Source: an uncultured Gammaproteobacteria bacterium (GTDB lineage Bacteria; Patescibacteriota; Microgenomatia; UBA12405). From it: a stretch of DNA of 64,000 bases. Each line of letters opens with the position of its first letter. Positions within the stretch are counted from its first letter, which is position 1. The stretch spans positions 17,583 to 81,582 of the forward strand of contig CAZCYZ010000001.1 in the NCBI GenBank assembly GCA_964503465.1. The letters run 5' to 3'. Under the pieces are notes generated by a model. It did no database searches. It was given only the letters and a program-made list of their open reading frames with translations, and was not told the DNA's origin. Below, piece by piece: positions 1 to 28,012 of this stretch. Position numbers and translations under genes: made by a program.

Positions 1-951
1 ATTTCCACCAGTATTAAAAAAGACCCCGTTGACGCTGTTTTCAAATTCGAAAACAATCAGGTTCTCGATTTTCAATCCGCTCAGAATGGTTACACCATTA
101 TTGTAGATCAAACCAATCTTGATCTCTGTCAGTCTTTGGGTAAACTTATCGATTCTCCCGACAAAACCCTGTCCATTACTCTCCCTTTAAGTTTTACCCC
201 TCCAAAAATCACCAACTCCGATGTTAATAGTCTTGGAATCAAGGAGCTTCTTGGTCGTGGTACTAGCAGTTTTTCTCACAGCACCGCCATTCGTAATTTT
301 AATGTCGAAAAAGGTGCCTCAATTGTCAATCGTCTTCTTGTCGCTCCTGGTGACGAGTTCTCTTTCCTTAAGGCCCTGGGAGATGTTACTCTCGAAGCAG
401 GATATAAGAAAGCCTATGTCATCAAAAAAGGTAAAACCGAACTTGATGTTGGCGGTGGAATTTGTCAGGTTTCGACTACTTTCTTTCGTGCCATTCTCAA
501 TGCCGGTCTCGATATCACTCAACGCAAAGCTCATGCTTATCGGGTTCAGTATTATGAAGAAGATACCAAACCTGGTTTTGATGCCACTGTATTCATTCCC
601 AGCCCCGACTTAAGATTTATCAACGATACTGGTCATTATCTTCTTATTCAAAGCCAATATGATGGCAAAAATAAAAAATTGGCCTATGAAATTTATGGCA
701 CCTCCGATGGTCGTACTGTTGAAGTTAGTAATTATCGCCAATGGGATTACGCCCCTCCTCCTCCGGATATTTACATCGACGATCCAACTCTTCCCCCCGG
801 TAAGGTAGTTAAGGACGAATCTCGTATTCCCGGTCTCAAGACTTCATTTGATTGGAAAGTTAGTCGCAATGGTGAAACCATTCATCAAAAAAGTTTTGTC
901 AGTAACTACGTCCCTTGGGCTGCCGTCTACCGACGAGGCCCATCGCTATAA
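1..951 (+). CDS. VanW-domain protein, 5' end outside the window
   Basis: Frame 1 is open from nt 1 through the annotated ORF 136..951. The motif LDVGGGICQVSTTFFRA is typical of the VanW family. Confidence 0.6.
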   Translation: MSTSIKKDPVDAVFKFENNQVLDFQSAQNGYTIIVDQTNLDLCQSLGKLIDSPDKTLSITLPLSFTPPKITNSDVNSLGIKELLGRGTSSFSHSTAIRNFNVEKGASIVNRLLVAPGDEFSFLKALGDVTLEAGYKKAYVIKKGKTELDVGGGICQVSTTFFRAILNAGLDITQRKAHAYRVQYYEEDTKPGFDATVFIPSPDLRFINDTGHYLLIQSQYDGKNKKLAYEIYGTSDGRTVEVSNYRQWDYAPPPPDIYIDDPTLPPGKVVKDESRIPGLKTSFDWKVSRNGETIHQKSFVSNYVPWAAVYRRGPSL

Positions 952-2025
952 TTCTGCTCTCGGGTCCCTGTCTAATTTTCCAATATTTCCTACATATTCT
1001 TCTCTCATTGCCTTGTAGTATCCCGCCACTCCAATCATCGCCGCATTGTCGGTGTTTAGCCATTTTTTTACTGGCATATAAATTGGCAATTCCATCTCCC
1101 TAGCTAATCTTCTCAATTTTCTTCTCAAATCCAAATTAGCCATCACTCCGCCACAAGCCAACAAACTTTTTGGTTTATATCCCTTAACTGCTAATTTATA
1201 TTTCCGTAATAATTGCTCAAACACCGCCTCCTGAAAACTGGCCGCCAAATTTTCTAAATTTTTGCCAATCTTATCTTTTGGCCAATCTTTGATTTGGTAA
1301 TAAAATGATGTCTTCAGCCCCGAAAAACTATAATCCAATGTTTTTTTGTCAGCCATTGGGTGGGGGAGAGGCAAAAAATTTTTGTCTCCTGTCAATGCCA
1401 ACCTCTCAATCACTGGACCGCCCGGGTATCCCAACCCCAGCAATTTACTCGCCTTGTCCAATGCCTCACCCGCCGCGTCATCCAATGTCTCCCCAACCAC
1501 TTCATATTCGCCAACTTTTCCCATCAAAATAATTTTGGTATGACCCCCAGACACCGTCAACACTAGTCCTGGTAGGTCTATTTTTCTCTCCGGCAAACCC
1601 TTAGAATTTTTTACCCAATTACTCAATATATGCCCTTCTATGTGGTTAACCGCTACTAATTTTTTATTATATTTAATCGCCAGTTTTTTGGCTGTATCCA
1701 CTCCCACTCCCAATGCCGGCGCTAATCCCGGTCCTACCGTCACCGCAACCACATCGACACCCATCATTAAAAAATCCAATTCCCCTCCTTTTCTCAAGGG
1801 AGGGGTTAGGGGTGGGTTTTGTCTTATTTTTGATCTTTTTAGTGCTTCCAATATCACTGGCATAATTCTTTCGCTATGGGCTCGCTTGGCCAAGTCAGGT
1901 ACCACCCCTCCCCACTTTTTGTGTAAATCAATCTGTGACGATATTACTGATGACCACAATCGGTCATTGTTCAACACCGCCGCCGCGGTATCATCGCAAC
2001 TCGTTTCTATTGCCAAAATTCGCAC
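946..2025 (-). CDS. tsaD: tRNA N6-adenosine threonylcarbamoyltransferase TsaD (Kae1/YgjD family)
   Basis: N-terminus MRILAIETSCDDTAAAV. Motifs VTVGPGLAPALGVG and GGVMANLDLRR are present. There is an extra insert of ~15 aa (RQNPPLTPPLRKGGELDF) relative to canonical TsaD. Confidence 0.85.
   Translation of the reverse strand: MRILAIETSCDDTAAAVLNNDRLWSSVISSQIDLHKKWGGVVPDLAKRAHSERIMPVILEALKRSKIRQNPPLTPPLRKGGELDFLMMGVDVVAVTVGPGLAPALGVGVDTAKKLAIKYNKKLVAVNHIEGHILSNWVKNSKGLPERKIDLPGLVLTVSGGHTKIILMGKVGEYEVVGETLDDAAGEALDKASKLLGLGYPGGPVIERLALTGDKNFLPLPHPMADKKTLDYSFSGLKTSFYYQIKDWPKDKIGKNLENLAASFQEAVFEQLLRKYKLAVKGYKPKSLLACGGVMANLDLRRKLRRLAREMELPIYMPVKKWLNTDNAAMIGVAGYYKAMREEYVGNIGKLDRDPRAEL
1781..1820. repeat. 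Dispersed G/C-rich imperfect-palindrome repeat, copy 1, in-frame inside tsaD
   Basis: Sequence tcccctccttttctcaagggaggggttaggggtgggtttt. It shares the tcccctccttttctc and caaggga(r)gg...gggttt blocks with the copies at 2888, 3068 and 23601. Confidence 0.6.
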
Positions 2026-2089
2026 TGCTGTATTATCTCAATAAAGTAAAAAAATACCATCATTCCCCAGTTTGTGGTATTTTTAAAGT

Positions 2090-2677
2090 ATGAAATCCTC
2101 CTCCCAAAGTTACCTTTATTTAATTTTTGCCATCGTTCTTCTTACTATTTCCATTATCGGTGTCATCAGTCTTTATCGTCGTTCGTCTTCGCCATCAGTT
2201 GCCGCTCCAACTCCCACGTCCTCACCGCGTGGCTATCCTTCGCCCAGTTACGATTTTGAAACTGCTTCTGTTTCCCCCACCATTACCTCCGGTCTTTCCA
2301 TGGACGAAATTGAACCCACCCCCACCCACCAGCAATACACTGGCGATACTTTTCAGCTCAAATACCCTTCTTATCGAAAATTAACCATCGAAAATGAAAC
2401 CAGTGGCAAACGTTATGTTTTCTACTCCAATATTGGCAATATCACTCTTCATTCTGGTTCTGCCTGGTCCTGGACCCACCCCAGCCGTCAATTTAGCTCT
2501 ACTCTGCTTGTTGCCGATCAGCCAACTTTCCGCTATGACACTGCCACTCAAACTATCATCGATTTTCAACAAGGCGATCAACTGTTTACTATCCAATGCG
2601 TTCATAACGGTAAACCTACCCTCAAAACCGAATGTGACCAGTTTGTGGCTAGTTTTCAGTTCTCAAACAAAAACTGA
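2090..2677 (+). CDS. Hypothetical membrane-anchored protein with Pro/Ser/Thr-rich linker
   Basis: N-terminal hydrophobic helix (YLYLIFAIVLLTISIIGVISL) followed by a PT-rich low-complexity region. No recognisable catalytic motif. Confidence 0.4.
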   Translation: MKSSSQSYLYLIFAIVLLTISIIGVISLYRRSSSPSVAAPTPTSSPRGYPSPSYDFETASVSPTITSGLSMDEIEPTPTHQQYTGDTFQLKYPSYRKLTIENETSGKRYVFYSNIGNITLHSGSAWSWTHPSRQFSSTLLVADQPTFRYDTATQTIIDFQQGDQLFTIQCVHNGKPTLKTECDQFVASFQFSNKN

Positions 2678-3773
2678 TCTTTCTTGTCTGTTCGTCCACA
2701 TACTCAAAATTCACTGCTACGTATTTAACCTTCTTTTTTAACTGCGCCAGGTATTTCCTTCCCATATTTTCCGGCCATTCAATACACGCCACCGTCTTTT
2801 CTCCAAACTGTCCCAAAAAATTTATTTCTTCCAATTCTCTCTCGCTCGAGATTCGATACAAATCAAAATGCAAAAACTTCAACAATTCCCCTTGCCCTGT
2901 CAAGGGAAAGGGGTTAGGGGTTAGGGTTTTATATTCATTAAAAATCACAAAAGTCGGACTGACAATCTTCTCTTTTACTCCTAGCATTTTCCCCAGCCCT
3001 CTAGCAAACACCGTTTTACCGCACCCCAAGTCCCCACTCAACCCAAAAACTAACGGTTTAACTTGTGTCCTGTCAAGGGAAAGGTGGTACGAAGTACCAA
3101 AGGGTTTCTTTAATAAGAAACCCGCCACCTTTTCCGTCTCTCTTACCGACTTTGATATCAAGCTTTTACTATCCCCAGTTGTCAAATCTCCTCGTCTTAA
3201 CACCTCTATTTCTGGCTTGGTCGTATCAATTACCGTTGATGGTTTGTTTCTTGAAAGTTTGCCCACATCAACTATCAAGTCAATCATCCCTCTCTTCTTT
3301 TTTGACAAAGTTCTTAGAAAACTTTTTATCGAATAATGCGGTGTTCTACCTGATAGGTTAGCCGAAGTTGCCGTTATTGGCCCATCTAATACCCCAACCA
3401 AATCACTAATATATTTATTGTCCGGAATTCGTATCCCCAATGTTCCATTTTCTGCTTCTATTCCTTTGGTTACTCGGTGTTTTCCCTTCGATACTACCGT
3501 AAACGGACCAGGTAATAAATTCTTGTATATTTGTTCTGCACTTTCGGACAGCTCAACAAATTCTTGAGCCATCTTTTTATCCGCCACTGCTATCGATATC
3601 GCCTTTCCCGTCCACCTGTTTTTAAATGCCAACAGTTTATCAACTGCCAATTTATTAGTCGGGTCAACTGCCAATATATACACCGTGTCACTTGGGTACA
3701 CCACCAATCCACCGTCTTTAATCACCCTCATTGCCTGCTGAATATTTTCGTCCATTGTTTCCGATTTTACCAT
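2649..3773 (-). CDS. Fusion protein: L-threonylcarbamoyladenylate synthase TsaC/YrdC-Sua5 domain (N-terminal) plus TsaE/YjeE P-loop ATPase (C-terminal)
   Basis: N-terminal half has YrdC motifs (VVYPSDTVYILAVD, ATSANLSGRTP). C-terminal half has the TsaE Walker A GDLGCGKT, SPTFVIFNEY and HFDLYRI. It contains two in-frame copies of the dispersed repeat. Confidence 0.75.
   Translation of the reverse strand: MVKSETMDENIQQAMRVIKDGGLVVYPSDTVYILAVDPTNKLAVDKLLAFKNRWTGKAISIAVADKKMAQEFVELSESAEQIYKNLLPGPFTVVSKGKHRVTKGIEAENGTLGIRIPDNKYISDLVGVLDGPITATSANLSGRTPHYSIKSFLRTLSKKKRGMIDLIVDVGKLSRNKPSTVIDTTKPEIEVLRRGDLTTGDSKSLISKSVRETEKVAGFLLKKPFGTSYHLSLDRTQVKPLVFGLSGDLGCGKTVFARGLGKMLGVKEKIVSPTFVIFNEYKTLTPNPFPLTGQGELLKFLHFDLYRISSERELEEINFLGQFGEKTVACIEWPENMGRKYLAQLKKKVKYVAVNFEYVDEQTRKISFCLRTEN
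2888..2930. repeat. Dispersed repeat, copy 2, in-frame inside the TsaE domain
   Basis: Sequence ccccttgccctgtcaagggaaaggggttaggggttagggtttt. It encodes the extra peptide TLTPNPFPLTGQGEL between the conserved NEY and HFDLYRI motifs of TsaE. Confidence 0.65.
3068..3106. repeat. Dispersed repeat, copy 3, at the TsaC/TsaE domain junction
   Basis: Sequence tcctgtcaagggaaaggtggtacgaagtaccaaagggtt. It has the same cctgtcaagggaaagg core, in a different reading frame (encodes HLSLDRT), followed by a tggtac-gaa-gtacca hairpin. Confidence 0.55.
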
Positions 3774-3787
3774 GCTAAAATCATTTT

Positions 3788-4228
3788 ATGAGGCGGGTAC
3801 TTCTTGTTGTTTTAACTCTAATTCTCGGTCTTAACCTTTATTTCCATTTTTTTATTTCCGATCCAATTACCCGGGCCAAAATTCGCACCCTTTCCTTATC
3901 TCGTGGTGATCGCTACTACTACACTCTTCACCTCTGGTATCTTCTCACTGATATCGGTGATTGGGATTCAGCCTCCAAGCTCGAAATTTTTCTGGATCCA
4001 GCCGACACCGCTTATAATTTAGCCCAAAACTCTCCTTCCGCTCTCAAGAAACGTCTTAACAATCTCACTGCCAAGTCCGATAAAAGTGTCGAGGATTGGA
4101 TCGAATTGGCCCAAGTTCAAATTCGTCTAGGGAAAACTGTCCCCGCCATCAACTCACTTACCCAAGCCCAAACTCTCGATCCGATTCGTGACGACATCAG
4201 CAAAATGTTATCCGAGCTTCGTCGTTAA
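3788..4228 (+). CDS. Hypothetical protein with N-terminal transmembrane segment
   Basis: ORF with a hydrophobic N-terminus. No recognisable domain. Confidence 0.35.
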   Translation: MRRVLLVVLTLILGLNLYFHFFISDPITRAKIRTLSLSRGDRYYYTLHLWYLLTDIGDWDSASKLEIFLDPADTAYNLAQNSPSALKKRLNNLTAKSDKSVEDWIELAQVQIRLGKTVPAINSLTQAQTLDPIRDDISKMLSELRR

Positions 4229-4908
4229 CTTTCCTTCTTCTCTTCTTCGGGGGGTTTTTCTCCCTCTGTGGCTTCAGCGGAGTCAGGGGCTTTCTGTTCT
4301 GTTGCTGGTACATCGCCCGGAGCCACTGTTGGTTCTTCAATTACTTCTTCCTTTGGTTCTTCCAGTTTTACCACCACCTGATCGGCTGCGGTTTTTATTT
4401 CTACCCTACTCTTATCTACCACCAAATCTGCCACCGTTACTTGTTGATCCAAGTTTTCCAACTTCGAAATATCCACCTCGATTTTTTCGGGAAGATCAGC
4501 CGGCAAAGCTTCCACTTCTACTTCTTCGGTCACCTCAATTAGTACATTTCCCGCTTTTACTGCTGGTGACTCACCCACAAACTCAATTGGCACTGTCGCT
4601 GTAATCTTTTCTTTCAGGTTTACTTTATAACCATCAATGTGAATTAAGTTACCTTCCACTGGATGATACTGGGGATTTCGAAATAATACCGGATAAGTTT
4701 TTCCATCAACCTCCAAGTCAACTAATCCCGATTCTCCTACTTCGTCAAAAACTTTATTCAACTCTTTAGTGTCTACCTGAATCGACAAAGCCTTAAAGTC
4801 GTTGCCATACACTGTTGCCGGCGTAATCCCTGCTGTTCGCAAGTGCTTTACTTTTTTCCCCAGCACGTTTCTAACTTCAGCTTTAAGTTTTGGATTTATT
4901 TTTGCCAT
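4225..4908 (-). CDS. rplY: 50S ribosomal protein L25 (general stress protein Ctc form) with acidic C-terminal tail
   Basis: MAKINPKLKAEVRNVLGKK...ITPATVYG...VDLEVDGKTYPVLFR matches the L25/Ctc N-terminal and beta-barrel domains. The C-terminus is Glu/Pro-rich. Confidence 0.8.
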   Translation of the reverse strand: MAKINPKLKAEVRNVLGKKVKHLRTAGITPATVYGNDFKALSIQVDTKELNKVFDEVGESGLVDLEVDGKTYPVLFRNPQYHPVEGNLIHIDGYKVNLKEKITATVPIEFVGESPAVKAGNVLIEVTEEVEVEALPADLPEKIEVDISKLENLDQQVTVADLVVDKSRVEIKTAADQVVVKLEEPKEEVIEEPTVAPGDVPATEQKAPDSAEATEGEKPPEEEKKES

Positions 4909-5205
4909 AATTTTTTTAGTCCACTCCGCCGGCCTTCATTTTCATTACAGCCTTTGGCACCATTAATTGGATGTTAGTATAGCACGAACCAGCAGATTCA
5001 TTCCCTGGTAAATCTGCCTCCATCCCTGTGGCTTACGAGGTTTAGGTGGCTCCCATAGATTCTCCAGAGCTATTTGATTTCGACGATTCTCGTCATCTGT
5101 CGCCACCCCGGGAGGTAAAGCCCTTAATGGATCATATTCCTTCTTTTTATGAAACAAAAAATTCATTAACTCCAATTATATCAATCAATTGCGATATAAT
5201 TATTC

Positions 5206-5577
5206 ATGGCCTCAATCAGCATCAAAACCTCCAAAATTATTACTAAATCAGGCAAAGTTCCTCTCCCCCTGTCCCATCTCATCAAAGACGATAACCAAAA
5301 CGGCCTCCCCGATTTTATTGAAAACAGTATCAAGAACGCTTCCACCGATTCCTCTTTAGATATCGAAATTAATGGCAAAAAGTATACCAATTGGGATCAG
5401 GTTCCACCGGAGGATCGTCTTCAGTTTAAGGATATTATTCCTCCCAAAACTTTAACTCAGCCAGAAGTTACTTCTTCCAACTCTGGCCAACCATTAGTCA
5501 ATATCAGTTTCCGCCGTTTGTTTCTTCTACTTCTGGTCCTTGCCGTTGTTTTATCCCTGGCCGTCCGATATTTCTAG
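5206..5577 (+). CDS. Hypothetical protein with C-terminal transmembrane anchor
   Basis: ORF followed by a strong intrinsic terminator. C-terminal hydrophobic helix LFLLLLVLAVVLSLAV. Confidence 0.3.
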   Translation: MASISIKTSKIITKSGKVPLPLSHLIKDDNQNGLPDFIENSIKNASTDSSLDIEINGKKYTNWDQVPPEDRLQFKDIIPPKTLTQPEVTSSNSGQPLVNISFRRLFLLLLVLAVVLSLAVRYF

Positions 5578-5684
5578 TGTTATACTGCCCTAATGTTTAA
5601 TATCTTCAAAACTTGGTGGCACTTCAACTAGCCTCAAGCGGGAGATATTAACTGATCAAATAAAGTAACTTGTTTTTTAATACG

Positions 5685-5709
5685 GCTCCCGCAAGGGAGC
5701 TTTTTGTTT
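5685..5709 (+). terminator. Rho-independent terminator (GNRA tetraloop hairpin plus T-tract)
   Basis: ggctcccGCAAgggagc perfect 6-bp stem with GCAA loop, followed by tttttgtttg. Confidence 0.55.
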
Positions 5710-5781
5710 GGGAGCGTAGTGCAAGGGTTAGCATACTTGTCCCCAAAACAAGTGATTCGGGTTCAAGCCCCGCCGCTCCTA
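5710..5781 (+). tRNA. tRNA-Trp (anticodon CCA), non-canonical C at position 33
   Basis: Manual fold: acceptor gggagcg/cgctcct (one G-U), D-arm gtgc-aagggtta-gcat, anticodon arm cttgt-CCCCAAA-acaag, 4-nt variable loop, T-arm tcggg-ttcaagc-cccgc. No encoded CCA. Confidence 0.55.
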
Positions 5782-5886
5782 CTATGACCAAAGAAAAATT
5801 TATCAAACCAACCGAGTTGGTTGTGCCGTCTACTATGGCGGATTTATTTATTAAGCCTTCTCACCGGAGGTTACTTTGGCCGTCCT

Positions 5887-7245
5887 ATGATTAATCTTTT
5901 TGGCATCACTATCGAGGCTCCATCGGGCAACGATGGTCAGTATTTTGACCATCTTTTAACTACTGTGGCCAAAAAAGATAACGAACGACAACTCTTAAAA
6001 CGCTTTCTTTTGACCAACTCTCGACTTGAAGAAATCACTGCCAGCGCTCAAGAATCAGCCAGCCAGCACTCTGATATCGACCACTTGAAACCCCAGGCCA
6101 TTGAATTTTATTTGTCGCAACTAAAACAAACCGGTCTTTATGAACAGGCGGTTCTTCGGCTTATTAGCCGCGACCACCTTTTTCGATCTGCCCCATATGC
6201 CGCCCAAATTCTTGCCGGAAAGTCTCCAGAATTACCAAATTATTACCCCAGTGATCACAAAAAAGCCGAAATTTTGGTTGTCGGTGCTCTAATTTCAGCC
6301 ATCAGTTTGCCGGAATGTCGCCAGTATCTAGCCCGTCATTTGGTTAAATCGCGGATCCAAGAAATTGCCAAGAATATGTTTTTTGCTATCAACCGTGGTC
6401 TTAACCCAGAACAAGTCACTACCTTCGTCTCAATTATTTACCAGTTGGAGAAAATTCAAGCCGCTCCAACCCTTGGCAATTTAAGAGAAGTTCTGCTTAA
6501 TGCTATTCTCTCCTCGTCTCCGGTGGAACTGGTCCACATCAAAAGTATTCGCTTCACCTATCCTGGCGGATCGAACTTAAGGGTGATCGAGGATACTGCC
6601 CCAGTAGAACAACTTACTGTCGACCAAGGTCATCGACTTTATCCTTCTGAAGAAGTCATTTTTAGCCGTTTGAATGCTGTTGCCTCTATTTTTCGAACGC
6701 ATGGTTTATCAGTTAATACCTCAATTATTGTTTCCGATCATGATCTTCAGTATTGTTTTCCTTCTCAGCAGGGGATTGTTCCGTCGTCAGATGTTTCTCT
6801 CGCCCACCAGTCTGTTAATCGATACATTAGTTACCTTCGACAACATCATCCGGAATGCCAAAACATTTATACCCTAACCGAATATCTCCAGTTGAGCCAT
6901 GCGGTTGATAGGTACGACCAACTATTTTCCATGCTCGTTTTTCAAGGTCATGGTGGGGGTGGTCAACACGTCTCTGAGAAAATATTAGAAATGCGGGTTA
7001 ACAGCCAATTTGAACACTATCGAGACATGTTTGGTCCAGGTTATACTCGAGAATTGGCCCGTTTTACCGCCATCAGACAAATTGCCAATGTTCTTGCCCT
7101 ATCGGCTGTCTTTGAAACATTTCCAACTATTCCAATCTTAGTTATTGATTCTCGCGGTTTTGAAGATCAACTCATTGGTGGCTATAACCCCAAATCAGTA
7201 GCCAAGTTCTTTACCAAACTCAAAGATCCGGTGGTTAAATGTTAA
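5887..7245 (+). CDS. Hypothetical protein (start uncertain; the annotated ORF starts at 5821)
   Basis: Long ORF lying between tRNA-Trp and trpS. No motif I can assign (contains GHGGGGQH). The start was chosen at the internal Met after the tRNA. Confidence 0.4.
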
Positions 7246-7261
7246 AATCAATTCAACCAAT

Positions 7262-8713
7262 ATGCCCGAACCAATAGTCGAAAGATATAATCAGGAGCTC
7301 ATTCAGCTTGGGATTGAGTTTAAAAACCTCGAACATCCTCCCATCAAGGAAGTCTTTGACTGTATGCGTTTTCTTGGTCTTCCTATTTCCGAAGGTTTTT
7401 CCACCTTAGTTATGAAGGCCGACAATCGTTATGTTGCTATCATTCGTCGCGACGATTGTCAGCTTAATATTAACCGAGCTTGCCAGGTTGTTGGTTGCAC
7501 CAAATTAACTCTTGCCTCGCCTGATGAGTTTGAAAAACTCACCCATCTTCCCTCTGGCGCCGCCCATATTCTGACTGGTCTACCCACTTATCTCGACCAA
7601 AAACTTTTTGACAAAGAATATTTAATTGGTGGCTCCGGTAGTCTTTCAATTAGTAACCGCTATCGCTCCGCCGACCTCAAAAAAATTCCCAACTCCCAAA
7701 TTGTCGACATTACCACCATCAAACAAAAGCTTCGTATTCTTACTGGTGACCGCCCTACCGGACCACTTCACTTGGGTCATTACGTTGGCACCCTTGCCAA
7801 CCGTGTTCGTCTTCAGGACCAATATGATTGTTTCTTTATCATGGCTGATCTCCACACCTTGACTACCGATTTTTCCAAAGCCAAAACTTCAACCATCAAC
7901 GATCGGGTTAGGGGATTGGTTCTCGACTATTTATCTGTCGGTATTGATCCTCGAAAATCCGTTATCTATCAGCAGTCTCGCGTCCCCGAAGTTACTTACT
8001 TATCAACTCTTTTTACTAATCTCATTACTGTCCCTCGAGCTCTACGTGTTCCTACCCTCAAAGATGTCATGCACGACCTTCACATCGAGCAGCCAAGTTT
8101 GGGACTTCTCAACTATCCAGTTTTACAGGCAGCTGACATTTTAATGGTCAAAGCCAGCCTTGTTCCAGTTGGCAAAGATCAGCAAAGTCATGTCGAAGTC
8201 ACTCGTGAGATCGCCCGTGATTTCAATAAAGCTTATGGTGAAGTTTTCCCTATCCCTGAAGCCATGATTGGTGATGTTGGCACCTTGGTTGGCACTGATG
8301 GCCAAGCCAAGATGAGTAAAAGTATTGGTAATTGTATTTATCTCTCTGACACCGCCGATACAGTTACCAAAAAAGTCATGAGCATGTATACCGACCCCAC
8401 CCGTATTCGTCCAACCGATCCTGGTCACGTCGAAGGCAATCCAGTTTTTATTTATCACGACGCTTTTAATCCAAACAAGGGGGAGGTGGCCGAACTCAAA
8501 AGTCGTTACCAAAAGGGGACTGTTGGTGATGTTGAGGTCAAGCAAAAACTTGCCATTGCCATCAATCAATTTCTAGATCCTATTCGTGTTCGTCGTGCCG
8601 AATACGAAAGCAAAACTGATCTTTTGGATCAGATCATTGATGATGGTTCTACTCGTGCTCACCTTGAAGCTCAAAAAACACTTGCAGAAGTTCTAAAGGC
8701 CATGGGGATTTAA
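7262..8713 (+). CDS. trpS: Tryptophan--tRNA ligase with N-terminal YbaK/ProX-like aminoacyl-tRNA deacylase domain
   Basis: C-terminal ~330 aa has [16 protein letters not shown] (HIGH-type), ADLHTLTT and KMSKS, matching the TrpRS pattern. N-terminal ~155 aa resembles the YbaK deacylase domain (FDCMRFLG...TLVMKAD...[10 protein letters not shown]...SGAAHIL...YLIGGSGS). Confidence 0.8.
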
Positions 8714-8718
8714 TCTCA

Positions 8719-9864
8719 ATGATTAGCCGCAATATTTTTCTTTCCTATCTTCTCTCATTCCTTCGAACCACTTGGTTTTGGCTTGGTATTTGGGTTTTCT
8801 ATTATCTTCGTTTTACCAACTATGCTGGTATCGGTCTTATCGAAACAGTTTTAATTGTCACTATGACTATTTTCGAAATCCCCACCGGTGCCATTGCCGA
8901 CCTTCTTGGTAGGAAAAGAACTCTCTTCGTTTCATTTTTTCTCCAGGCTATCTGCCAGTTTTGGATGGCCTATACCGGTAACTTAACTGGTCTTTGTCTG
9001 GCAGTTTTTATCGGTGGCCTTGGTGGCACCCTCTATTCCGGCACTATGGACGCCCTCGTTTTTGATAGCCTTAAACAAAACAAGCTTGAATCAAAATATA
9101 GCCGTGTTTTGGCACACAGTCAGACCATTCAGCTTATCTCCATGACTATTTGTGGTGTCATTGGCGGTTTTCTCTACCGTTTCGATCCTCGCTTGCCATT
9201 TGTCCTGTCCGGGGTTTGTTACTTGTTGGCCACCGGTATCACTGTTTTCCTAGTTGAACCGTCCGTTGATACCGATCAGTTTTCCTTTTCCAATTATTTA
9301 TTCCAAATGAAACAGGGATTTTCTCAACTTTTTAACCAATCAATCAGATCATTCATCGTCCTCCTTCTTGTCATCGGTGGTATTTTTGTCATTTCCTCCG
9401 AAATGCTTGATAGCATTTTGGGTTATGAATTCGGCTTCACTGACATTCAGTTGGGAGTTTTTACATCAGTCGTTTTTTTAATTTCTGCTCTGATCTCCCA
9501 ATTTGCTTCTAAAGTCAAAAACATTATTGTCATTATCCTCCCCGCCGCCATTGTCTACCTATTATCTCCGGTTTCTGGAGTTTGTCTTGGTGGTCTGTTG
9601 CTTGTAATCCGTCAGATCAGTGATACTTTTTTTCAGAATTATTCCTCTGATTTTATTAATCAACATATCGAATCAAAATACCGTGCCACCACTATCTCCA
9701 CTTTTAATATGGTCAAAAATATTCCCTATGTTTTCACCGCCGTGTTTCTCGGCGCCTTTATGGATAGTCTTGGTGCCACTACCTTTGCTTTCACCCTCGG
9801 CTTGGTGTTAATGGTTGTCATCATCGTATCGGTTAGTCGCAACAAGCTCAACCTTAGGTCATAA
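8719..9864 (+). CDS. MFS-type transporter
   Basis: About 12 predicted TM helices. MFS-like motif GAIADLLGRKRTL after TM2. Confidence 0.6.
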   Translation: MISRNIFLSYLLSFLRTTWFWLGIWVFYYLRFTNYAGIGLIETVLIVTMTIFEIPTGAIADLLGRKRTLFVSFFLQAICQFWMAYTGNLTGLCLAVFIGGLGGTLYSGTMDALVFDSLKQNKLESKYSRVLAHSQTIQLISMTICGVIGGFLYRFDPRLPFVLSGVCYLLATGITVFLVEPSVDTDQFSFSNYLFQMKQGFSQLFNQSIRSFIVLLLVIGGIFVISSEMLDSILGYEFGFTDIQLGVFTSVVFLISALISQFASKVKNIIVIILPAAIVYLLSPVSGVCLGGLLLVIRQISDTFFQNYSSDFINQHIESKYRATTISTFNMVKNIPYVFTAVFLGAFMDSLGATTFAFTLGLVLMVVIIVSVSRNKLNLRS

Positions 9865-9903
9865 CCTTCAGTTTCTTTCCAGTTTTCCATTTATAATGAA
9901 TGC

Positions 9904-10335
9904 ATGTCCACTTGTCCTCGCGGCCTAATCAACGATCCCTACCCTGGTTCTTGCAGCCAATACGTTGATGTCAATCAGGATCAACTTTGTGATCTGTCCC
10001 AAGTCACTACTAGTGACTCTTCACCTCCACCAGTTACTGATTCTGTCCCACCTTCCATGTCCTTTGACTACACCCTAATTATTCTTTTTTTTATTCCTAT
10101 TTTCATTTACTTCTTTACCTCCAAGTTCAAACTTTTTTGGAATGTCATTCTTTTAATTACTTTTATCCCCACCGTCATTAGTTCTCTATTCTATGTTTTT
10201 AATATTTTCAATCCAACTATCAATCAACTCCATCTTTATTTTGGCACCGCCTTTCTAAGCATTTCTTTCTGCCATGTCATTTGGCATCTGCCTTACTGGC
10301 AAGGGATAATCAAAAAAATCTTCTTGGGAGTATAA
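9904..10335 (+). CDS. Hypothetical membrane protein with Cys-rich N-terminus
   Basis: ORF with an N-terminal CPRG...C...C...C region and hydrophobic helices. Its 3' end overlaps the next ORF in another frame. Confidence 0.3.
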   Translation: MSTCPRGLINDPYPGSCSQYVDVNQDQLCDLSQVTTSDSSPPPVTDSVPPSMSFDYTLIILFFIPIFIYFFTSKFKLFWNVILLITFIPTVISSLFYVFNIFNPTINQLHLYFGTAFLSISFCHVIWHLPYWQGIIKKIFLGV

Positions 10336-10682
10336 TTTTCTTCATGCACTGGATCTATGCCCACCTGATAGGGGACTATCTTCTCCAAAATGACTGGATG
10401 TCACAGAACAAAAAACTTGCCTCCTGGCCATGTTTTGTTCACACCATTACCTACCTAATTCCCTTCATTTTTACCCCACTTGCTTGGTGGCAATTAGTTC
10501 TTATTTTTCTTCAACATTTTTTTCAGGACCGCTTCCAATTTGCTTATTGGTTCCTCCGTCTTAAGGGATCACCTGATTTTGCCATGCCTCCCACTGCCCC
10601 TTGGTCCCTCATTGTTATCGACAATATCTTTCACATTCTCTTTGTCGCCTTCATTGCCTGGTTGCCACAAGTGTTTCTCTAG
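10281..10682 (+). CDS. Hypothetical membrane protein (DUF3307-like HxxGDYLLQ motif). The real start is probably at Met 10344
   Basis: HWIYAHLIGDYLLQ motif and several hydrophobic helices. The stop codon immediately abuts the tRNA-fragment locus. Confidence 0.3.
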   Translation: MASALLARDNQKNLLGSIIFFMHWIYAHLIGDYLLQNDWMSQNKKLASWPCFVHTITYLIPFIFTPLAWWQLVLIFLQHFFQDRFQFAYWFLRLKGSPDFAMPPTAPWSLIVIDNIFHILFVAFIAWLPQVFL

Positions 10683-10740
10683 TGGGCATGCATGGAGTCG
10701 AACCATGGACCCCTCCGACGTCACGTCGGAGTGCTCTAAC
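10683..10740 (-). pseudogene. Partial tRNA (3' portion: palindromic anticodon-arm position, T-arm, acceptor 3' strand) of a paralog of the adjacent tRNA-Ile
   Basis: The reverse complement reads gagcac-TCCGACGTGACGTCGGA-ggggtc-catgg-ttcgact-ccatg-catgccc-a. No acceptor 5' strand or D-arm is present. The T-arm is identical to tRNA-Ile at 11006..11082. Confidence 0.5.
10705..10740. repeat. 36-bp perfect direct repeat, copy A (contains a 17-bp TCCGACGTCACGTCGGA near-palindrome)
   Basis: atggacccctccgacgtcacgtcggagtgctctaac is identical to 11092..11127. Confidence 0.8.
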
Positions 10741-11005
10741 TAACAAGTTTGCAATAACCATCACGGATTATTTTATCCAGTACAATTTTAGACTTTAATT
10801 TTTTCAGTCTAAATTCGACACTTCTTGCTGCCCGTAAACTTTGACACTTTTGACTAAACACTATCCTCCACGGAATTCCGCTTTTAGTGGCTCTTACTAA
10901 TCCAAGATTATGTTGTTTATTCAATCGTCTCTCTGGATCATTCGAGCTACCTACATAATATTTCCCAGTCAAACCACTCTTTAGGACATAAATATATCCC
11001 ACCAT
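10736..11005 (-). CDS. GIY-YIG nuclease family protein (UPF0213/YhbQ-like, ~89 aa)
   Basis: GYIYVLKSGLTGKYYVGSSNDPERRLNKQHN is a GIY-YIG motif with the conserved Arg and His-Asn. The start was set at the second Met so that it does not overlap the tRNA. The stop codon lies inside direct repeat copy A. Confidence 0.65.
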   Translation of the reverse strand: MVGYIYVLKSGLTGKYYVGSSNDPERRLNKQHNLGLVRATKSGIPWRIVFSQKCQSLRAARSVEFRLKKLKSKIVLDKIIRDGYCKLVS

Positions 11006-11082
11006 TGGTGGGTGTGCATGGATTCGAACCATGGACCCTCGACTTATAAGATCGATGCTCTAACCAACTGAGCTACACACCC
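11006..11082 (-). tRNA. tRNA-Ile (anticodon UAU) with encoded CCA
   Basis: Reverse complement GGGTGTG-TA-GCTC-AGTTGGTTA-GAGC-A-TCGAT-CTTATAA-GTCGA-GGGTC-CATGG-TTCGAAT-CCATG-CACACCC-A-CCA is a full cloverleaf. Confidence 0.7.
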
Positions 11083-11091
11083 AAATTTTAA

Positions 11092-11127
11092 ATGGACCCC
11101 TCCGACGTCACGTCGGAGTGCTCTAAC
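11092..11127. repeat. 36-bp perfect direct repeat, copy B
   Basis: Identical to 10705..10740. Confidence 0.8.
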
Positions 11128-11144
11128 CACCAAGCTACATGCCC
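11093..11144 (-). pseudogene. Partial tRNA (5' portion: acceptor 5' strand, D-arm, palindromic anticodon-arm position) with its own TATAAT promoter
   Basis: Reverse complement gggcatg-ta-gctt-ggtggtta-gagc-ac-TCCGACGTGACGTCGGA-ggggtccat, then diverges. Upstream (minus strand) is ttgatataattcc 13 nt before the tRNA 5' end. Confidence 0.5.
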
Positions 11145-11260
11145 AATACTATGGAATTATATCAATTGTATCCTTCTGGTAGTATAAGTCGGGTGACTTA
11201 ATCCAAGAGAACTTTTATCGCCGTAGGCGAAATATAAATAAAGCGGATAATCGGAACAAA

Positions 11261-11304
11261 GTGACGATATAAGATCGGTGCTCTAACCACCAAGCTACAT
11301 GCCC
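11261..11304 (-). pseudogene. Chimeric partial tRNA (same 5' acceptor/D-arm as 11093..11144 fused to an Ile-like cgatcttata anticodon region) with a duplicated promoter
   Basis: Reverse complement gggcatgtagcttggtggttagagcac-cgatcttatatcgtcac. The upstream flank ttggtataattcc duplicates the promoter-like flank of 11093..11144. Confidence 0.45.
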
Positions 11305-11325
11305 AAAATTAAGGAATTATACCAA

Positions 11326-11580
11326 TTATCGACCTACAATAGCTCTCAGCACTCGCTTTTCCGCTGTAATTAAATTTCCCCCTTCCAACTCCTGCATATC
11401 AGTTCTTACTGTCTGCCATGCTTCTGTCCTGGCTTCCCTCGCCCCCCAGAACTTTCTGGTTCGTTCTGCAGGTTGTCCTATCACTTTTCCATTCTTGTCA
11501 ACTCCTTTGGCGGCCCTGCTCAACTGTTCATTAACTGCCCGAAACTTAGACAGATCACTCTCTAACTTATCACCAGGCAT
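11326..11580 (-). CDS. Hypothetical protein
   Basis: 84-aa ORF between the tRNA fragments and tRNA(CAU). No recognisable motif. Confidence 0.3.
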   Translation of the reverse strand: MPGDKLESDLSKFRAVNEQLSRAAKGVDKNGKVIGQPAERTRKFWGAREARTEAWQTVRTDMQELEGGNLITAEKRVLRAIVGR

Positions 11581-11607
11581 ATTAGTTATAAAAAATTAAC
11601 TTTTAAG

Positions 11608-11681
11608 TAGCAGGGGCGGGATTTGAACCCGCGACCCCAGCGTTATGAATGCTGTGCTCTAACCAACTGAGCTACCCTGCC
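11608..11681 (-). tRNA. tRNA with CAU anticodon (Met, or Ile2 if lysidinylated)
   Basis: Reverse complement GGCAGGG-TA-GCTC-AGTTGGTTA-GAGC-A-CAGCA-TTCATAA-CGCTG-GGGTC-GCGGG-TTCAAAT-CCCGC-CCCTGCT-A. Confidence 0.7.
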
Positions 11682-11759
11682 AAGAATACGAAATTATATC
11701 AACTCACAGCCTTCTTGACTATTTAATCCGTCCCTATGATAAAATTCCCTGAATCTACC

Positions 11760-11829
11760 TGCGGGGTAGTGTACGGCTGCACGTGAGGCTCATAATCTCA
11801 CAGACCTGGTTCAACTCCAGGCCCCGCAA
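11760..11829 (+). tRNA. tRNA with CAU anticodon, 70 nt (Met/fMet candidate), U1-A72 first pair and short D-loop
   Basis: tgcgggg-ta-gtgt-acggct-gcac-g-tgagg-CTCATAA-tctca-caga-cctgg-ttcaact-ccagg-ccccgca-a. It is convergent with the other CAU tRNA. Confidence 0.55.
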
Positions 11830-12184
11830 ATAATTCCCACCACTGTTTCCAAGCTGGCTTCTTTACTACCTCGTTAACTTTGGGGTATAGGTTGAGATTT
11901 TTATCCTCCGGTGGCAACACCAACCAGTAATCATTCGATCCCCCAAGTCCCAGCTTGTCTCTGGCCTCTTGCTCCAAATACGCGCTACTGGTTGAATACT
12001 TAATCCTTTGGGTTAATTTTCGGTTTTCTTCAATCAACTTGTCAATTTTATCCTCATTTTCGGCTACTTTCTTGGTGGCTTCCCACAAATTCCCCCACTG
12101 TCTTATAAGGTTGACCCATATTGATATAGTTACCACCAATAACACCCAATCCAAAATTGACCTAAATAACCCTTTCTTCATCAT
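11830..12184 (-). CDS. FtsB/DivIC-like septum formation initiator (the annotated ORF extends to 11798 and would overlap the tRNA)
   Basis: N-terminal TM helix, coiled-coil (KIDKLIEENRKLTQRI) and EQEARDKLGLGG motif typical of FtsB/DivIC. Confidence 0.45.
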
Positions 12185-12220
12185 TAGCTTGTAGATTGTC
12201 CTAATTTATGTTACTATAAG

Positions 12221-13093
12221 ATGTTTATGCCTGACCTATCATTAGAAAATGCCCTTGGCCTCTTCAGTAATCAACTAGCCAAAAAGGGTAAATCCAACAA
12301 TACCATTGTAGCCTACAAAGGTGATATCAACCAGCTCGCTGCCTATCTCCGTAGCCAGAATATTACCACCATTGATGCTATCGCTCCCAGCCATCTTGAC
12401 AGCTTCAAAAAGCACCTCATGGACAATGGCTACACTGCCAAATCAGTCTCCCGCAAATTAAACTCCATCAAAAATTTCTTCTCTTTTCTTAAGTCTGAGG
12501 GGGTTATTGTCTCCGACCCTTCCAGTACCATCAAACACCCCAAGTACGAAAACGATCTCCCCAAAGTTCTCAAACCCATCGAATATCGCTCTCTTCGTGA
12601 CGCCTGTAGAAATGACCTCCGAGCCACTGCCATCGTCGAGCTTATGCTTCAGGCTGGTCTTCGGATCAAGGAAATCGAAAACCTCCGTCTCGAAGATGTC
12701 AAAGACACCGAAGTCAACATTACTGCCTACGAATCTCATCCTGCCCGCAACGTCCCCCTCAACAACTCTGCCAAATCATCCCTTAAGCGCTATCTCGACG
12801 AGGGCCGTTTTGATTCAAAAGCTAAAAACGTTTTCGTCACCAAAACTGGTCGTCGTCTTTTGGCTCGAAACATTCGTTCCCTTCTTAATCGCTATTTTGA
12901 CAAAGCCGATATTAAGGACATTAAAGTTAATGACCTTCGCAATACCTTTATCGTTTTCCAGCTCAAATCCGGCGTTCCCATTGATGTTGTCTCTCAAGTT
13001 GTTGGTCACAAGCGTATCAGCACCACCGAAAAATACCTCGAACTCATCGATTCCAAAGAGGAATCCAAGGGCATCAAACTAAAAGAGCTTTAA
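12221..13093 (+). CDS. Tyrosine site-specific recombinase (XerC/XerD or integrase family)
   Basis: N-terminal SAM-like core-binding region. C-terminal catalytic motifs LRATAIVELMLQAGLRIKE, NDLRNTF, VGHKRISTTEKYLEL (R..H-R-Y). Confidence 0.8.
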   Translation: MFMPDLSLENALGLFSNQLAKKGKSNNTIVAYKGDINQLAAYLRSQNITTIDAIAPSHLDSFKKHLMDNGYTAKSVSRKLNSIKNFFSFLKSEGVIVSDPSSTIKHPKYENDLPKVLKPIEYRSLRDACRNDLRATAIVELMLQAGLRIKEIENLRLEDVKDTEVNITAYESHPARNVPLNNSAKSSLKRYLDEGRFDSKAKNVFVTKTGRRLLARNIRSLLNRYFDKADIKDIKVNDLRNTFIVFQLKSGVPIDVVSQVVGHKRISTTEKYLELIDSKEESKGIKLKEL

Positions 13094-13117
13094 TTTAATA
13101 ATTAAATTAACCACAAA

Positions 13118-13438
13118 ATGAGCCAACGATTTGTCATTGAGGCCGACAATACCAAATATCCTGCCGCCGTTGTCCGTGCGGCCATTGAAGCTGCCGAGCG
13201 GTACGATGTTTTGCAACGCCCTACTCAAGTTACTTTTGTCCCTGCCCACGATTTTGGTGACGGCAGGTTTGTTGTCCGAGTCACAGTTGATGGCACCGCT
13301 ACGATTGTTCACGACCATTTCCGTTCAGATGGTACTCCAATTGCTAGGGGTACGAGCAGAGTATTGCGAGCCGGAGAAACAAGTAAGTCTCCTGTTCTTG
13401 TTAGTTTCTCCCCCCGGCTCTCTATTTCCTCTAGATAA
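13118..13438 (+). CDS. Hypothetical protein
   Basis: 106-aa ORF with ordinary composition. The overlapping 13131..13658 ORF is low-complexity and probably spurious. Confidence 0.3.
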   Translation: MSQRFVIEADNTKYPAAVVRAAIEAAERYDVLQRPTQVTFVPAHDFGDGRFVVRVTVDGTATIVHDHFRSDGTPIARGTSRVLRAGETSKSPVLVSFSPRLSISSR

Positions 13439-13677
13439 TCAACCCCAAAGGAATCTAAAAGTAGTTACTATGCCCAAAGATCATCTCAAACCCACTCCCG
13501 ACCAAATCCTTCAAAGGCTCACCGTTTTATCTGGTGAAGCCGAAAACAAGTACCTGATGACCAAAGACAAAAAATGGTCTCGTGCCGCCAACAGTATCAA
13601 TCGAGCAGCACAAAAAATCAGCGCAAGTCCCGAATTCCAAGCTCAACGTCCCAAATAATTTTATAATCCCATTTTTA

Positions 13678-14211
13678 TCATCTCATAGCCCCGTAGGCCC
13701 TATCTCGATTCTCCCACCATAAAAGTTCCATAAAGATATTTCTTTTATCTCCTGGGTCAAAATTTGCCTCTAACCACCCTGAGTTATTTTCAACATTTTC
13801 ACTTCCTATCCCCTCCGCCATCCGTCTTAACGCTTCCGCAAAGAACGGTAATTGACCAGCTATACGTATGTCAGGTTCAACCATTGCGTATCTTGCTATG
13901 TCCTGCAATACGAGTGCCGTTGCATCTTCCAAACTCGCCACCGTAGTCACTTCGGTAAACATCTCTGCTGGTAATCTCTGGGCTAATTCCATTCCCCTTT
14001 CCCCAATTTTCCCTACCAACTCCTCGCGACTTGCTATCTTTGACAATTGTCCTCCCCATAGTCCTATGACACCGTTTTCAAATCCTCGCCATCCAGCGTA
14101 AACCCCAGCCTGGGTGGCATATCCGGGAACTCTATCCAAAAAATTTGTAACCGCTACTAATTCTGCAGATTTTGGAGGAAGTCTGTCTTTTGGTGGTTCG
14201 ACCATAATCAC
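13678..14211 (-). CDS. Hypothetical protein (same strand as, and closely spaced with, the downstream ATPase gene)
   Basis: 177-aa ORF with no recognised motif. It sits 31 nt from the start of the 14243..16573 gene. Confidence 0.35.
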   Translation of the reverse strand: MIMVEPPKDRLPPKSAELVAVTNFLDRVPGYATQAGVYAGWRGFENGVIGLWGGQLSKIASREELVGKIGERGMELAQRLPAEMFTEVTTVASLEDATALVLQDIARYAMVEPDIRIAGQLPFFAEALRRMAEGIGSENVENNSGWLEANFDPGDKRNIFMELLWWENRDRAYGAMR

Positions 14212-14242
14212 AGCTTAGCTTATAATCAGCCAAAATACAATC

Positions 14243-16573: not shown

Positions 16574-16920
16574 TTTTCCTCTTTAAACACTACCTCTCCC
16601 TTTTTAATTTTAATCAATCGCCACACAAAGGTCGACAACCATCTCCCCGCTTCTTCAATTTTTTTCTTAAATCCATCACCAAAAGCCTTCCTGGTTACTG
16701 GCAGTACTATTTTTGGATTTTGCGGTTGTGTTGGGGTCAACAACGGCTGACCGGTGTCATCAGTCACCGTTGTTGTTTGAGCCTTTTCCACTTTTCTCAT
16801 CCAGGTTTCCACTTCTGGTGGCAATTTTTCCTCATCTCTAATCTTGTCAAGATCCCTAATCTCAAATTCTGGTTTCGTTACTTCTACTGGCGTCGTCAAT
16901 CTTTCTTTGCTTTCGGTCAT
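16570..16920 (-). CDS. Hypothetical protein, translationally coupled (4-nt overlap) to the ATPase gene
   Basis: 116-aa charged protein. ATGA overlap with the downstream gene. Confidence 0.35.
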   Translation of the reverse strand: MTESKERLTTPVEVTKPEFEIRDLDKIRDEEKLPPEVETWMRKVEKAQTTTVTDDTGQPLLTPTQPQNPKIVLPVTRKAFGDGFKKKIEEAGRWLSTFVWRLIKIKKGEVVFKEEK

Positions 16921-16941
16921 ATCAAACAGTATAGGCTAACA

Positions 16942-18117
16942 ATGCTACAATTTCACTACATGCCTTCTACTTTTAGTTCTATTCGATCCATTGACAATAC
17001 TCGTCGTCAGGCCCCATTTATCACCATCCTTCTTGTGGCTTTGTTAATTGTCATCGCAATCTGGTTTTTCCGTGGTGGCAGTTTCCGTCTTTACGCTAGT
17101 GCTTTTTTTGGTCTTTACTTTATTACTCGTCAGGTTTGGGTTTCTGTTTTGCTCATCGGCATTTTGCAAAACATTATTTTTCTTCCTCTTCGCTTTATCG
17201 GTCTCAAACTTTCTACCTCACTCAAACAATTCGAAGATGAACTCGAGAATGTCAAAAGTGAAAGCCAGCAATATTTTCTCTTCACTCAAAAAGTTCGCCG
17301 TGGTGACCCAGCTATTGTCTTTTTTATTTTCAACTTTGTTGTTAATGCTATTGCTTTTTTTTCGGCCGGTCGTATCTTCTTAATCGATTTTTATTCCCAA
17401 GAACTTGATTCCAGTTATCTTTACAGTTTTATTCCTTACCCCCAATATCCCCTACAAGGAACCAACTTTTATTTTCCATTTTTTAAAATCACTAACACTG
17501 TTTCTCTACCCTGGTCCAAAATTCTTCTTATCTGGTTAGTTATCAGTCTTGGCTTTGCTATCCCTAAATTTCTTTGGCGCTTTGTTAAACCACTATTGTG
17601 GAGGAATCAACAAGTCTTAGGGGCCCGCATTAACTATAATCGTCTTTTGTTAATCACCGGCGGTTTCAGTGGCACTGTTTTTGTCCTCTCACTTTTCCTG
17701 CTTCGTCATATCCCTGTCGGATTTGAGGGTTGGCTTCTTATGGCTGATCTTACCCGTCAAAACACTACTATGAATTTCATTACTGCCATTGGTACCTTCA
17801 TCACCACTCTCCATGCCGGTTACACCCACAGTTCTTTAGTTGCCTCAGAAGCTCGCCACAGTGCTATACCCGAAAACATCATTTCCCGTGTCTTTCGCAG
17901 TCAAATGCGTCAATCTTTCAAAAATGCTCTTATTTTAGGTATTGGTGCTTTCTTGGTTACTAACCACATTCCTTGTGCCTTCGAGCTTTCTGTTGCCACT
18001 TTCGAGGTCCTCTATATTCTTTCTCCCTACACCTTCAACCGTCTTCTCCCCAAACCCGCTCCGGTAGTTACCGCCACCGAGACCGAATCAAATATTTCCA
18101 CCAAAAAAACCGACTAA
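16942..18117 (+). CDS. Polytopic integral membrane protein (start uncertain)
   Basis: More than 8 predicted TM helices. Divergent from the ATPase cluster with only a ~20-bp spacer. No motif recognised. Confidence 0.4.
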   Translation: MLQFHYMPSTFSSIRSIDNTRRQAPFITILLVALLIVIAIWFFRGGSFRLYASAFFGLYFITRQVWVSVLLIGILQNIIFLPLRFIGLKLSTSLKQFEDELENVKSESQQYFLFTQKVRRGDPAIVFFIFNFVVNAIAFFSAGRIFLIDFYSQELDSSYLYSFIPYPQYPLQGTNFYFPFFKITNTVSLPWSKILLIWLVISLGFAIPKFLWRFVKPLLWRNQQVLGARINYNRLLLITGGFSGTVFVLSLFLLRHIPVGFEGWLLMADLTRQNTTMNFITAIGTFITTLHAGYTHSSLVASEARHSAIPENIISRVFRSQMRQSFKNALILGIGAFLVTNHIPCAFELSVATFEVLYILSPYTFNRLLPKPAPVVTATETESNISTKKTD

Positions 18118-18123
18118 ACCACC

Positions 18124-19907: not shown

Positions 19908-19924
19908 ATCTGTTAAATTATACT

Positions 19925-22191: not shown

Positions 22192-22219
22192 GAATAGTAT
22201 CGAAATTTTTGTATAATCA

Positions 22220-23568: not shown

Positions 23569-23600
23569 AATTCAGTATAGCCCATTCATCATTTATTTAG

Positions 23601-23652: not shown

Positions 23653-23668
23653 ATGTTAAAATTACCCA

Positions 23669-25447: not shown

Positions 25448-25467
25448 ATTCTACTGTAGAATACACC

Positions 25468-27991: not shown

Positions 27992-28012
27992 GGGCTATTC
28001 TACCACTGAGAC

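Follow-up and report, generated by a model that had tools for sequence, protein, structure and literature searches.

A TsaC–TsaE fusion encoded upstream of tsaD in bacteria of the Candidate Phyla Radiation and its bearing on tRNA t6A synthesis

In Escherichia coli and Thermotoga maritima, TsaC (YrdC) and TsaE (YjeE), two proteins of the pathway to the tRNA modification N6-threonylcarbamoyladenosine (t6A), are stand-alone polypeptides that share TsaD as their partner. In solved T. maritima TsaBDE complexes, TsaE sits where the TsaD active site opens and competes there with tRNA, and both proteins take part in binding the gamma-phosphate of the TsaE ATP (PMC6009658). In that study it was proposed that TsaE ‘prepares’ TsaD for TsaC, that the transfer of threonylcarbamoyl-AMP (TC-AMP) takes place with TsaE in its bound state, and that ATP hydrolysis then frees TsaE, permitting tRNA to bind (PMC6009658). 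The role of the TsaE ATPase and the route by which labile TC-AMP travels from TsaC to TsaD are the main questions of bacterial t6A synthesis. Here, we describe tsaCE, a gene in a 64,000-nucleotide stretch of contig CAZCYZ010000001.1 (the whole stretch is referred to as the window) that encodes a TsaC and a TsaE domain in a single polypeptide and lies upstream of tsaD on the same strand.

The tsaCE gene (2649..3773; this gene and all its parts are on the minus strand) was located in the list of open reading frames (ORFs) and annotated with Pfam and NCBIfam. It begins with an ATG, ends in a stop codon at 2649..2651 and encodes 374 aa. The TsaC (YrdC-type) TC-AMP synthase domain comprises aa 1-195 (3189..3773; PF01300, TIGR00057) and is followed by an 8-residue linker, DLTTGDSK (aa 196-203; 3165..3188), and by a complete TsaE P-loop ATPase domain (aa 204-374; 2652..3164; PF02367, TIGR00150). 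Pfam matches Sua5_yciO_yrdC (PF01300) at aa 17-195 (3.5e-43, 147.6 bits against a cut-off of 25.1) and TsaE (PF02367) at aa 240-365 (2.7e-26, 92.5 bits against a cut-off of 26.6), and reports no further domain, i.e. neither SUA5 nor the Kae1/TsaD-like PF00814; TsaD is encoded by a separate gene. The NCBIfam models for L-threonylcarbamoyladenylate synthase (TIGR00057, 156.1 bits) and TsaE (TIGR00150, 76 bits) score above their curated equivalog cut-offs of 123.2 and 60.1, respectively, which places both domain assignments far beyond chance. The first-pass annotation had read this ORF as one 374-aa polypeptide with a YrdC N-terminus and a TsaE C-terminus, and the profile searches bear out both the single frame and the two domains.

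Domain borders were set by alignment to E. coli TsaC and TsaE taken from the annotated K-12 genome (the linker was delimited in the same way). In this alignment, the TsaC half ends at RRG195, and the first elements of the TsaE half, its N-terminal strand and helix, follow from about S204. The late start of the Pfam match to TsaE is due solely to a loop insertion. Two such variable loop insertions are found in the TsaE half, at aa 226-239 and 283-297. The junction itself (...VLRRG-DLTTGDSK-SLISKS...) is read in a single frame and contains neither a stop codon nor a long homopolymer run.

The catalytic motifs of both halves are intact. A KRSN tetrad (KxR...SxN) tells TsaC apart from its YciO paralogue (PMC4615747), and the tetrad is complete in TsaCE: K51 and R53 form the KxR motif (aa 51-53; 3615..3623), and S137 and N139 the SxN motif (aa 137-139; 3357..3365), with the coordinates of both checked by translation. 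The TsaE half contains, at positions likewise obtained by translation, the Walker A motif GDLGCGKT (aa 247-254; 3012..3035), SPTF (aa 272-275; 2949..2960; the next residue is V, not T), HFDLYR (aa 302-307; 2853..2870) and EWPE (aa 332-335; 2769..2780), matching the motifs of the TsaE family (Walker A GxxGxGK[TS], SPT(F/Y), HxDxYR and EW). The role of the SPT loop in TsaE has been described (PMC6009658). In a wide set of 70 diverse fused proteins (30-61% identity), K51 does not vary, and S137 and N139 are each retained in at least 90%; R53 is the consensus residue and is conserved in at least 90% of the Shapirobacteria-type proteins. Invariant in the TsaE halves of the same set are G250, G252, K253, T254, S272, H302, D304, E332 and W333. 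That the catalytic residues of both halves are kept down to about 30% identity argues that both activities are under selection, and, judged from these alignments, both active sites are retained throughout the history of the family.

The fusion is widespread. An identical protein (P0001) is recorded from an NCBI contig of 470,112 bp, and all of the 120 best homologues of a first protein search (62-78% identity) contain both Pfam domains; where their sources are named, these are Candidatus Shapirobacteria or Microgenomates metagenome-assembled genomes (MAGs). A second search with the most distant member as the query again returned the two-domain architecture in each of its 120 best matches, with Candidatus Dojkabacteria and Pacebacteria among the named examples. 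Overall, the named lineages with the fusion are Shapirobacteria, Pacebacteria, Woesebacteria and Dojkabacteria. Among the larger sequences on which it occurs are JBAQNJ010000001.1 (998 kb), OZ246401.1 (GCA_965230965.1, 938 kb) and Dojkabacteria contigs of about 600 kb. Among 1.84 billion cluster representatives, 174 proteins matched at E <= 1e-30, and both domains were present in 131 of the best 150 representatives clustered at 50% identity, down to about 33% identity. Scanning one genome per GTDB species yielded 38 loci, in which the gene is full length unless cut by a contig end, and a metagenome scan with a 12-sequence query alignment added 80 fused loci. Family members of 409-486 aa have the same two domains plus insertions; when they were checked for an additional domain, TsaB for instance, nothing beyond TsaC and TsaE was found. 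Public databases usually name the fusion proteins ‘L-threonylcarbamoyladenylate synthase’ only, even though one JGI protein name appears to list both functions. Pathway reconstruction from such names would therefore score TsaE as missing in genomes that encode the fusion.

An AlphaFold2 model of TsaCE, built with 119 homologues, reached a mean predicted local distance difference test (pLDDT) score of 89.7 and a predicted template modelling (pTM) score of 0.88. These values argue for a fixed orientation of the two domains, i.e. for a protein predicted to fold into one compact body. In a Foldseek search of the PDB, the N-terminal half matched E. coli YrdC (1hru) with a template modelling (TM) score of 0.83 normalised to the target, and the C-terminal half matched the TsaE structures 1htw (TM 0.76) and 6n9a chain E (TM 0.65). 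Over the full length, alignments to the Sua5 entries 6f89 and 9dsv were loose, with a root-mean-square deviation of about 15 Å, and the search returned no solved chain that contains both a TsaC and a TsaE domain.

Association of tsaCE with tsaD

The window encodes a 359-aa TsaD, the tRNA N6-adenosine threonylcarbamoyltransferase, at 946..2025 on the minus strand (TIGR03723, 348 bits against a cut-off of 296; PF00814, 5.5e-78). Its metal-binding motifs HIEGH (1630..1644), GGVMAN (1135..1152) and DNAAM (1036..1050) are all present. The genes had been described as encoded directly beside each other on one strand; the shared strand holds true, but 623 bp separate tsaCE from tsaD, and this interval is occupied by orf195 (2090..2677, plus strand), a gene for a conserved, membrane-anchored protein of 195 aa. 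orf195 shares 29 bp with the 3′ end of tsaCE, and its own start lies 64 bp away from that of tsaD.

Across the related loci, the pairing of the two genes is nearly constant. In 97 of the 98 loci that contain both genes, tsaD follows tsaCE on the same strand, the only locus in which they lie apart being L048. The genes abut in about 44 of the 98, with gaps of -41 to +245 bp; direct adjacency is found, for instance, in the distant lineages L043, L045 (OZ246401.1, a 938-kb genome) and L049. About 50 Shapirobacteria-type loci, including the window, instead carry an orf195 homologue on the other strand within a gap of 590-900 bp. In most of the 38 Shapirobacteria-type loci orf195 is kept in position and orientation (E 1e-27 to 1e-45), and it is missing wherever tsaCE and tsaD directly adjoin. 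The simplest history starts from tsaCE and tsaD in one ancestral operon, with orf195 arriving between them later, in the Shapirobacteria branch.

The orf195 product consists of an N-terminal membrane helix, a low-complexity linker rich in Pro and Ser, and a C-terminal domain of about 110 aa. Pfam assigns it to no family, and a homologue gives a weak match to PsbP_2 only. The protein probably stands outside the t6A system.

One locus close to the window organism departs from the fused arrangement. On a Logan contig of SRR22388160 (L047), whose tryptophanyl-tRNA synthetase (TrpRS) and L25 are 59% and 72% identical to those of the window, a stand-alone TsaE of 170 aa is encoded at 9640..10152, with about 51-54% identity to the fused TsaE domain. 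The gene order there is stand-alone tsaE, an unannotated 177-aa ORF, an orf195 homologue and tsaD, and no TsaC-coding sequence is present on the whole 11.5-kb contig. This stand-alone TsaE is probably the product of a secondary fission of the fusion.

Further genes recur near the pair, namely those for FtsH, Zip, VanW, a 5′-3′ exonuclease and Rrf2-SufC-SufB, and no third partner gene was found to recur beside tsaCE-tsaD across lineages. In one lineage (L050, L051 and the related group of about 39 loci, defined by single linkage of fusion proteins at least 55% identical), tsaD is followed, in a subset of the loci, by genes for an Rrf2-family regulator and the Fe-S cluster assembly proteins SufC and SufB. 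As TsaD needs a bound metal, this linkage may be meaningful.

TsaD of the window has an insertion of about 20-25 residues at aa ~62-90 (KIRQNPPLTPPLRKGGELDFLMMG), located after the first helix, at which the Pfam match is split. The first helix is part of the N-terminal helix pair that forms the dimer interface in TsaB-TsaD and in Qri7. In the distant lineage L043, TsaD is 404 aa long.

At its other end, tsaCE (start at 3773, minus strand) faces a divergent ORF for a 146-aa membrane/TPR-like protein (start at 3788, plus strand). Only 14 bp lie between the two starts, which leaves hardly any space for two promoters, so that the call of one start codon or the other may be wrong.

Coupling to TsaD and the TsaB question

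The best explanation of these data, to which we assign a probability of roughly 70%, is that TsaCE is a bifunctional protein that ties the delivery of TC-AMP to the TsaE-bound state of TsaD. Judged by its motifs, the N-terminal YrdC-type domain would make TC-AMP from threonine, bicarbonate and ATP. ATP-bound TsaCE would dock, via its TsaE half, on a TsaD-containing dimer, in which the partner of TsaD would be either a TsaB encoded elsewhere or a second TsaD. Given a linker of about 8 residues and a body predicted to be compact, the TsaC half would be held near TsaD whenever the TsaE half docks, and the labile TC-AMP could be passed directly from the tethered TsaC half to TsaD. TsaE would then hydrolyse ATP and the entire TsaCE would depart as a unit, whereupon tRNA could bind the vacated TsaD site and receive the threonylcarbamoyl group. 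Both the hand-off of TC-AMP and its coupling to ATP hydrolysis are plausible steps of such a cycle, and a natural TsaC–TsaE fusion is the kind of comparative signature that the model of PMC6009658 predicts.

Several observations weigh against this coupling. With orf195 on the opposite strand between them, tsaCE and tsaD do not form one transcription unit in the window, i.e. they are not co-transcribed there. The stand-alone TsaE of L047 implies that the covalent link between TsaC and TsaE is not indispensable. Moreover, TobZ's TsaC-like module sits on the side of its TsaD-like module opposite the TsaE site (PMC6009658), and an 8-residue tether is too short to reach the far side of the same TsaD, making a TobZ-like channel unlikely. 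If TsaCE works as proposed, it must either adopt a geometry unlike that of TobZ or, within a higher-order complex, supply the second TsaD from its TsaC half.

Of the other explanations, the one that survives best is a reduced t6A machinery, which is compatible with bifunctional TsaCE and adds a claim to it. Here, tsaCE and tsaD would be the complete system: TsaD would pair with itself like mitochondrial Qri7, and TsaE would act on the homodimer. The first-pass annotation had noted the lack of tsaB in the neighbourhood, and this observation withstood a closer search. In a Pfam scan of 69 ORFs of the 64-kb window, PF00814 matched nothing but two supplied tsaD control entries, and no paralogue turned up there when TsaD or E. 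coli TsaB served as the phmmer query. The 10 kb adjoining the left end of the window, recovered from a Logan contig, likewise yielded no TsaB, and in about 1.6 Mb of related loci TsaD ORFs only were retrieved by an E. coli TsaB probe and by a hidden Markov model (HMM) that represents the N-terminal domain and was made from E. coli TsaB together with 102 TsaD sequences of the clade. The probe is sensitive enough to match T. maritima TsaB at 41 bits, well over the scores of the TsaD chains. Two ORFs considered as candidates were rejected: orf195, as a hidden TsaB or analogue, because of its membrane helix, low-complexity linker, lack of a Pfam family, opposite strand and absence from the lineages in which tsaCE and tsaD abut; and the 177-aa ORF of L047, which has no family match and bears no resemblance to TsaB. 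The lack of any recurrent third partner gene next to tsaCE-tsaD also favours a two-gene system.

Published gene counts point in the same direction. According to Supplementary Data 1 of Méheust et al. 2019 (PMC6744442), TsaD and TsaE are ‘equally distributed’, being found in 1942 and 1528, respectively, of 2321 genomes of the Candidate Phyla Radiation (CPR), while TsaC (1303/2321) and TsaB (415/2321) are ‘depleted’; among non-CPR bacteria, the TsaB family occurs in 840 of 1198 genomes. These TsaB counts make an arrangement lacking TsaB a serious possibility, although the table covers 921 widespread families only, and a divergent CPR TsaB family could fall outside it.

Yet, there are also reasons for caution. 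The search for TsaB spanned the window, the adjoining 10 kb and the related loci, not whole genomes, and in other bacteria tsaB is often unlinked from tsaD. In solved complexes, TsaE touches both TsaB and TsaD (PMC6009658). Finally, reduced genomes were described in a 2015 review as losing either TsaE alone or TsaB and TsaE together, and the loss of TsaB with retention of TsaE is not recorded there (PMC4615747). On balance, we consider a self-sufficient tsaCE-tsaD pair to be a tentative reading that falls somewhat short of even odds. Its extension to TsaCE-bearing CPR in general (Microgenomates-type and Dojkabacteria), which would make t6A with tsaCE and tsaD but no TsaB, the TsaE domain acting on a TsaD homodimer while delivering TC-AMP, is possible, with the odds leaning against it. 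If true, such a clade would possess a new minimal bacterial t6A system, the first in bacteria without TsaB but with TsaE, and would constitute a natural experiment on the role of TsaE.

A less favoured alternative is that the fusion is neutral or merely regulatory: two neighbouring genes lost the intervening stop codon, and the joint protein ensures 1:1 expression while catalysis is unaffected. Small genomes commonly contain gene fusions, the window itself holds another one (of an editing domain to TrpRS), and the close relative L047 has a stand-alone TsaE, all of which would fit this scenario. However, the fusion has been retained down to about 30% identity across several CPR lineages with a junction that is always short, and the AlphaFold2 model is compact and of high confidence. 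The degree of retention suggests selection for the TsaC–TsaE linkage itself, and we regard a neutral fusion as unlikely.

Still less probable, and in our view only a slim chance, is that TsaCE is not a t6A enzyme, its N-terminal domain being a YciO-like paralogue or its P-loop domain serving another role. It is true that the YrdC fold also matches the YciO structures 1k7j and 1kk9 at similar scores. Against this stand the presence and conservation of the KRSN tetrad, the equivalog-level models matched by both domains and the near-universal pairing with tsaD. In addition, no other tsaC or tsaE copy was seen near the fusion. Lastly, a frameshift, sequencing error or mis-assembly that merged two genes, an alternative raised with the first description of the ORF, found no support and is excluded: the ORF is in frame and uninterrupted, its junction has no long homopolymer run, and the two-domain architecture recurs in hundreds of assemblies made independently of one another (NCBI, JGI, ENA and Logan).

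Other features of the window and related records

The second fusion in the window is encoded at 7262..8713 (plus strand), a TrpRS-type protein of 483 aa (PF00579, aa 155-438) with an N-terminal editing domain. The latter is of the YbaK/ProX type involved in aminoacyl-tRNA editing (PF04073, aa 25-141, 6.6e-15). The same editing-TrpRS architecture is present in L047 (485 aa), and an editing domain on TrpRS seems unusual. Between the TrpRS fusion gene and a 123-aa ORF located just past the L25 gene (5206..5577, plus strand) lies a 474-aa ORF (5821..7245, plus strand), for which Pfam gives no family at E <= 0.01.

The GC skew of the plus strand is strongly negative over most of the window, at about -0.2 to -0.3 over positions 1..28000 and 44000..64000, and about 0 in the 28-36 kb region. 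Phage-integrase and GIY-YIG domains were matched within the window, an inserted element being one possibility. An unusual strand composition disparity is reported, in the title of the paper, for a complete Microgenomates genome (PMC7143001).

Several public MAG records with the CPR-type cluster bear titles that name ‘uncultured Gammaproteobacteria’, ‘Candidatus Methanoperedens’ or ‘Diapherotrites archaeon’ (L003, L006, L011, L013, L014, L016-L018, L021-L023 and others, as well as P0320). Such records are probably mislabelled or mis-binned.

Comparison with known systems

A natural TsaC–TsaE fusion is not mentioned in the t6A reviews and structural papers that were searched, leaving aside a text match to ‘TsaE-TsaC’ in a paper on archaeal KEOPS, and the main text of the searched papers on CPR gene content does not discuss t6A genes. 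The deeply conserved fusion, nearly always located just before tsaD, is comparative evidence of independent origin for a joint action of TsaC and TsaE on TsaD, and TsaCE provides a ready, compact construct for structural and kinetic tests of this idea.

Compared with stand-alone TsaC and TsaE, TsaCE has the same folds, catalytic motifs and partner, but joins the two enzymes in one polypeptide through an 8-residue linker and bears two lineage-variable loop insertions in its TsaE half. The overall plan resembles that of Sua5/TsaC2, in which an N-terminal YrdC domain likewise precedes another, similarly sized domain of the alpha/beta type; in TsaCE, however, this second domain is a TsaE P-loop ATPase and not SUA5.

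YrdC domains tethered to the machinery that uses their labile product are also known from TobZ, HypF and Pandoravirus TsaN. These proteins fuse the synthase to a Kae1/TsaD-like transferase, whereas TsaCE fuses it to the accessory ATPase. TobZ and HypF form a channel; with TsaCE, TsaD stays a separate gene.

For t6A synthesis without TsaB, mitochondrial Sua5 plus Qri7 and the species Mycoplasma haemofelis and M. suis are possible precedents (PMC4615747). Those systems, however, also lack TsaE, while the TsaCE clade keeps TsaE strongly conserved, meaning that its reduction, if it is one, is not of the same kind.

The nearest analogy in logic is the archaeal Kae1-Bud32 protein (e.g. MJ1130, HVO_1895), likewise a covalent fusion of t6A proteins that includes a regulatory ATPase/kinase; its existence has been read as a sign that the joined components are functionally linked (PMC4615747). 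Bud32 is not related to TsaE, and the two dock on separate faces of the transferase (PMC6009658). In Kae1-Bud32 the ATPase is joined to the transferase; in TsaCE it is joined to the TC-AMP synthase.

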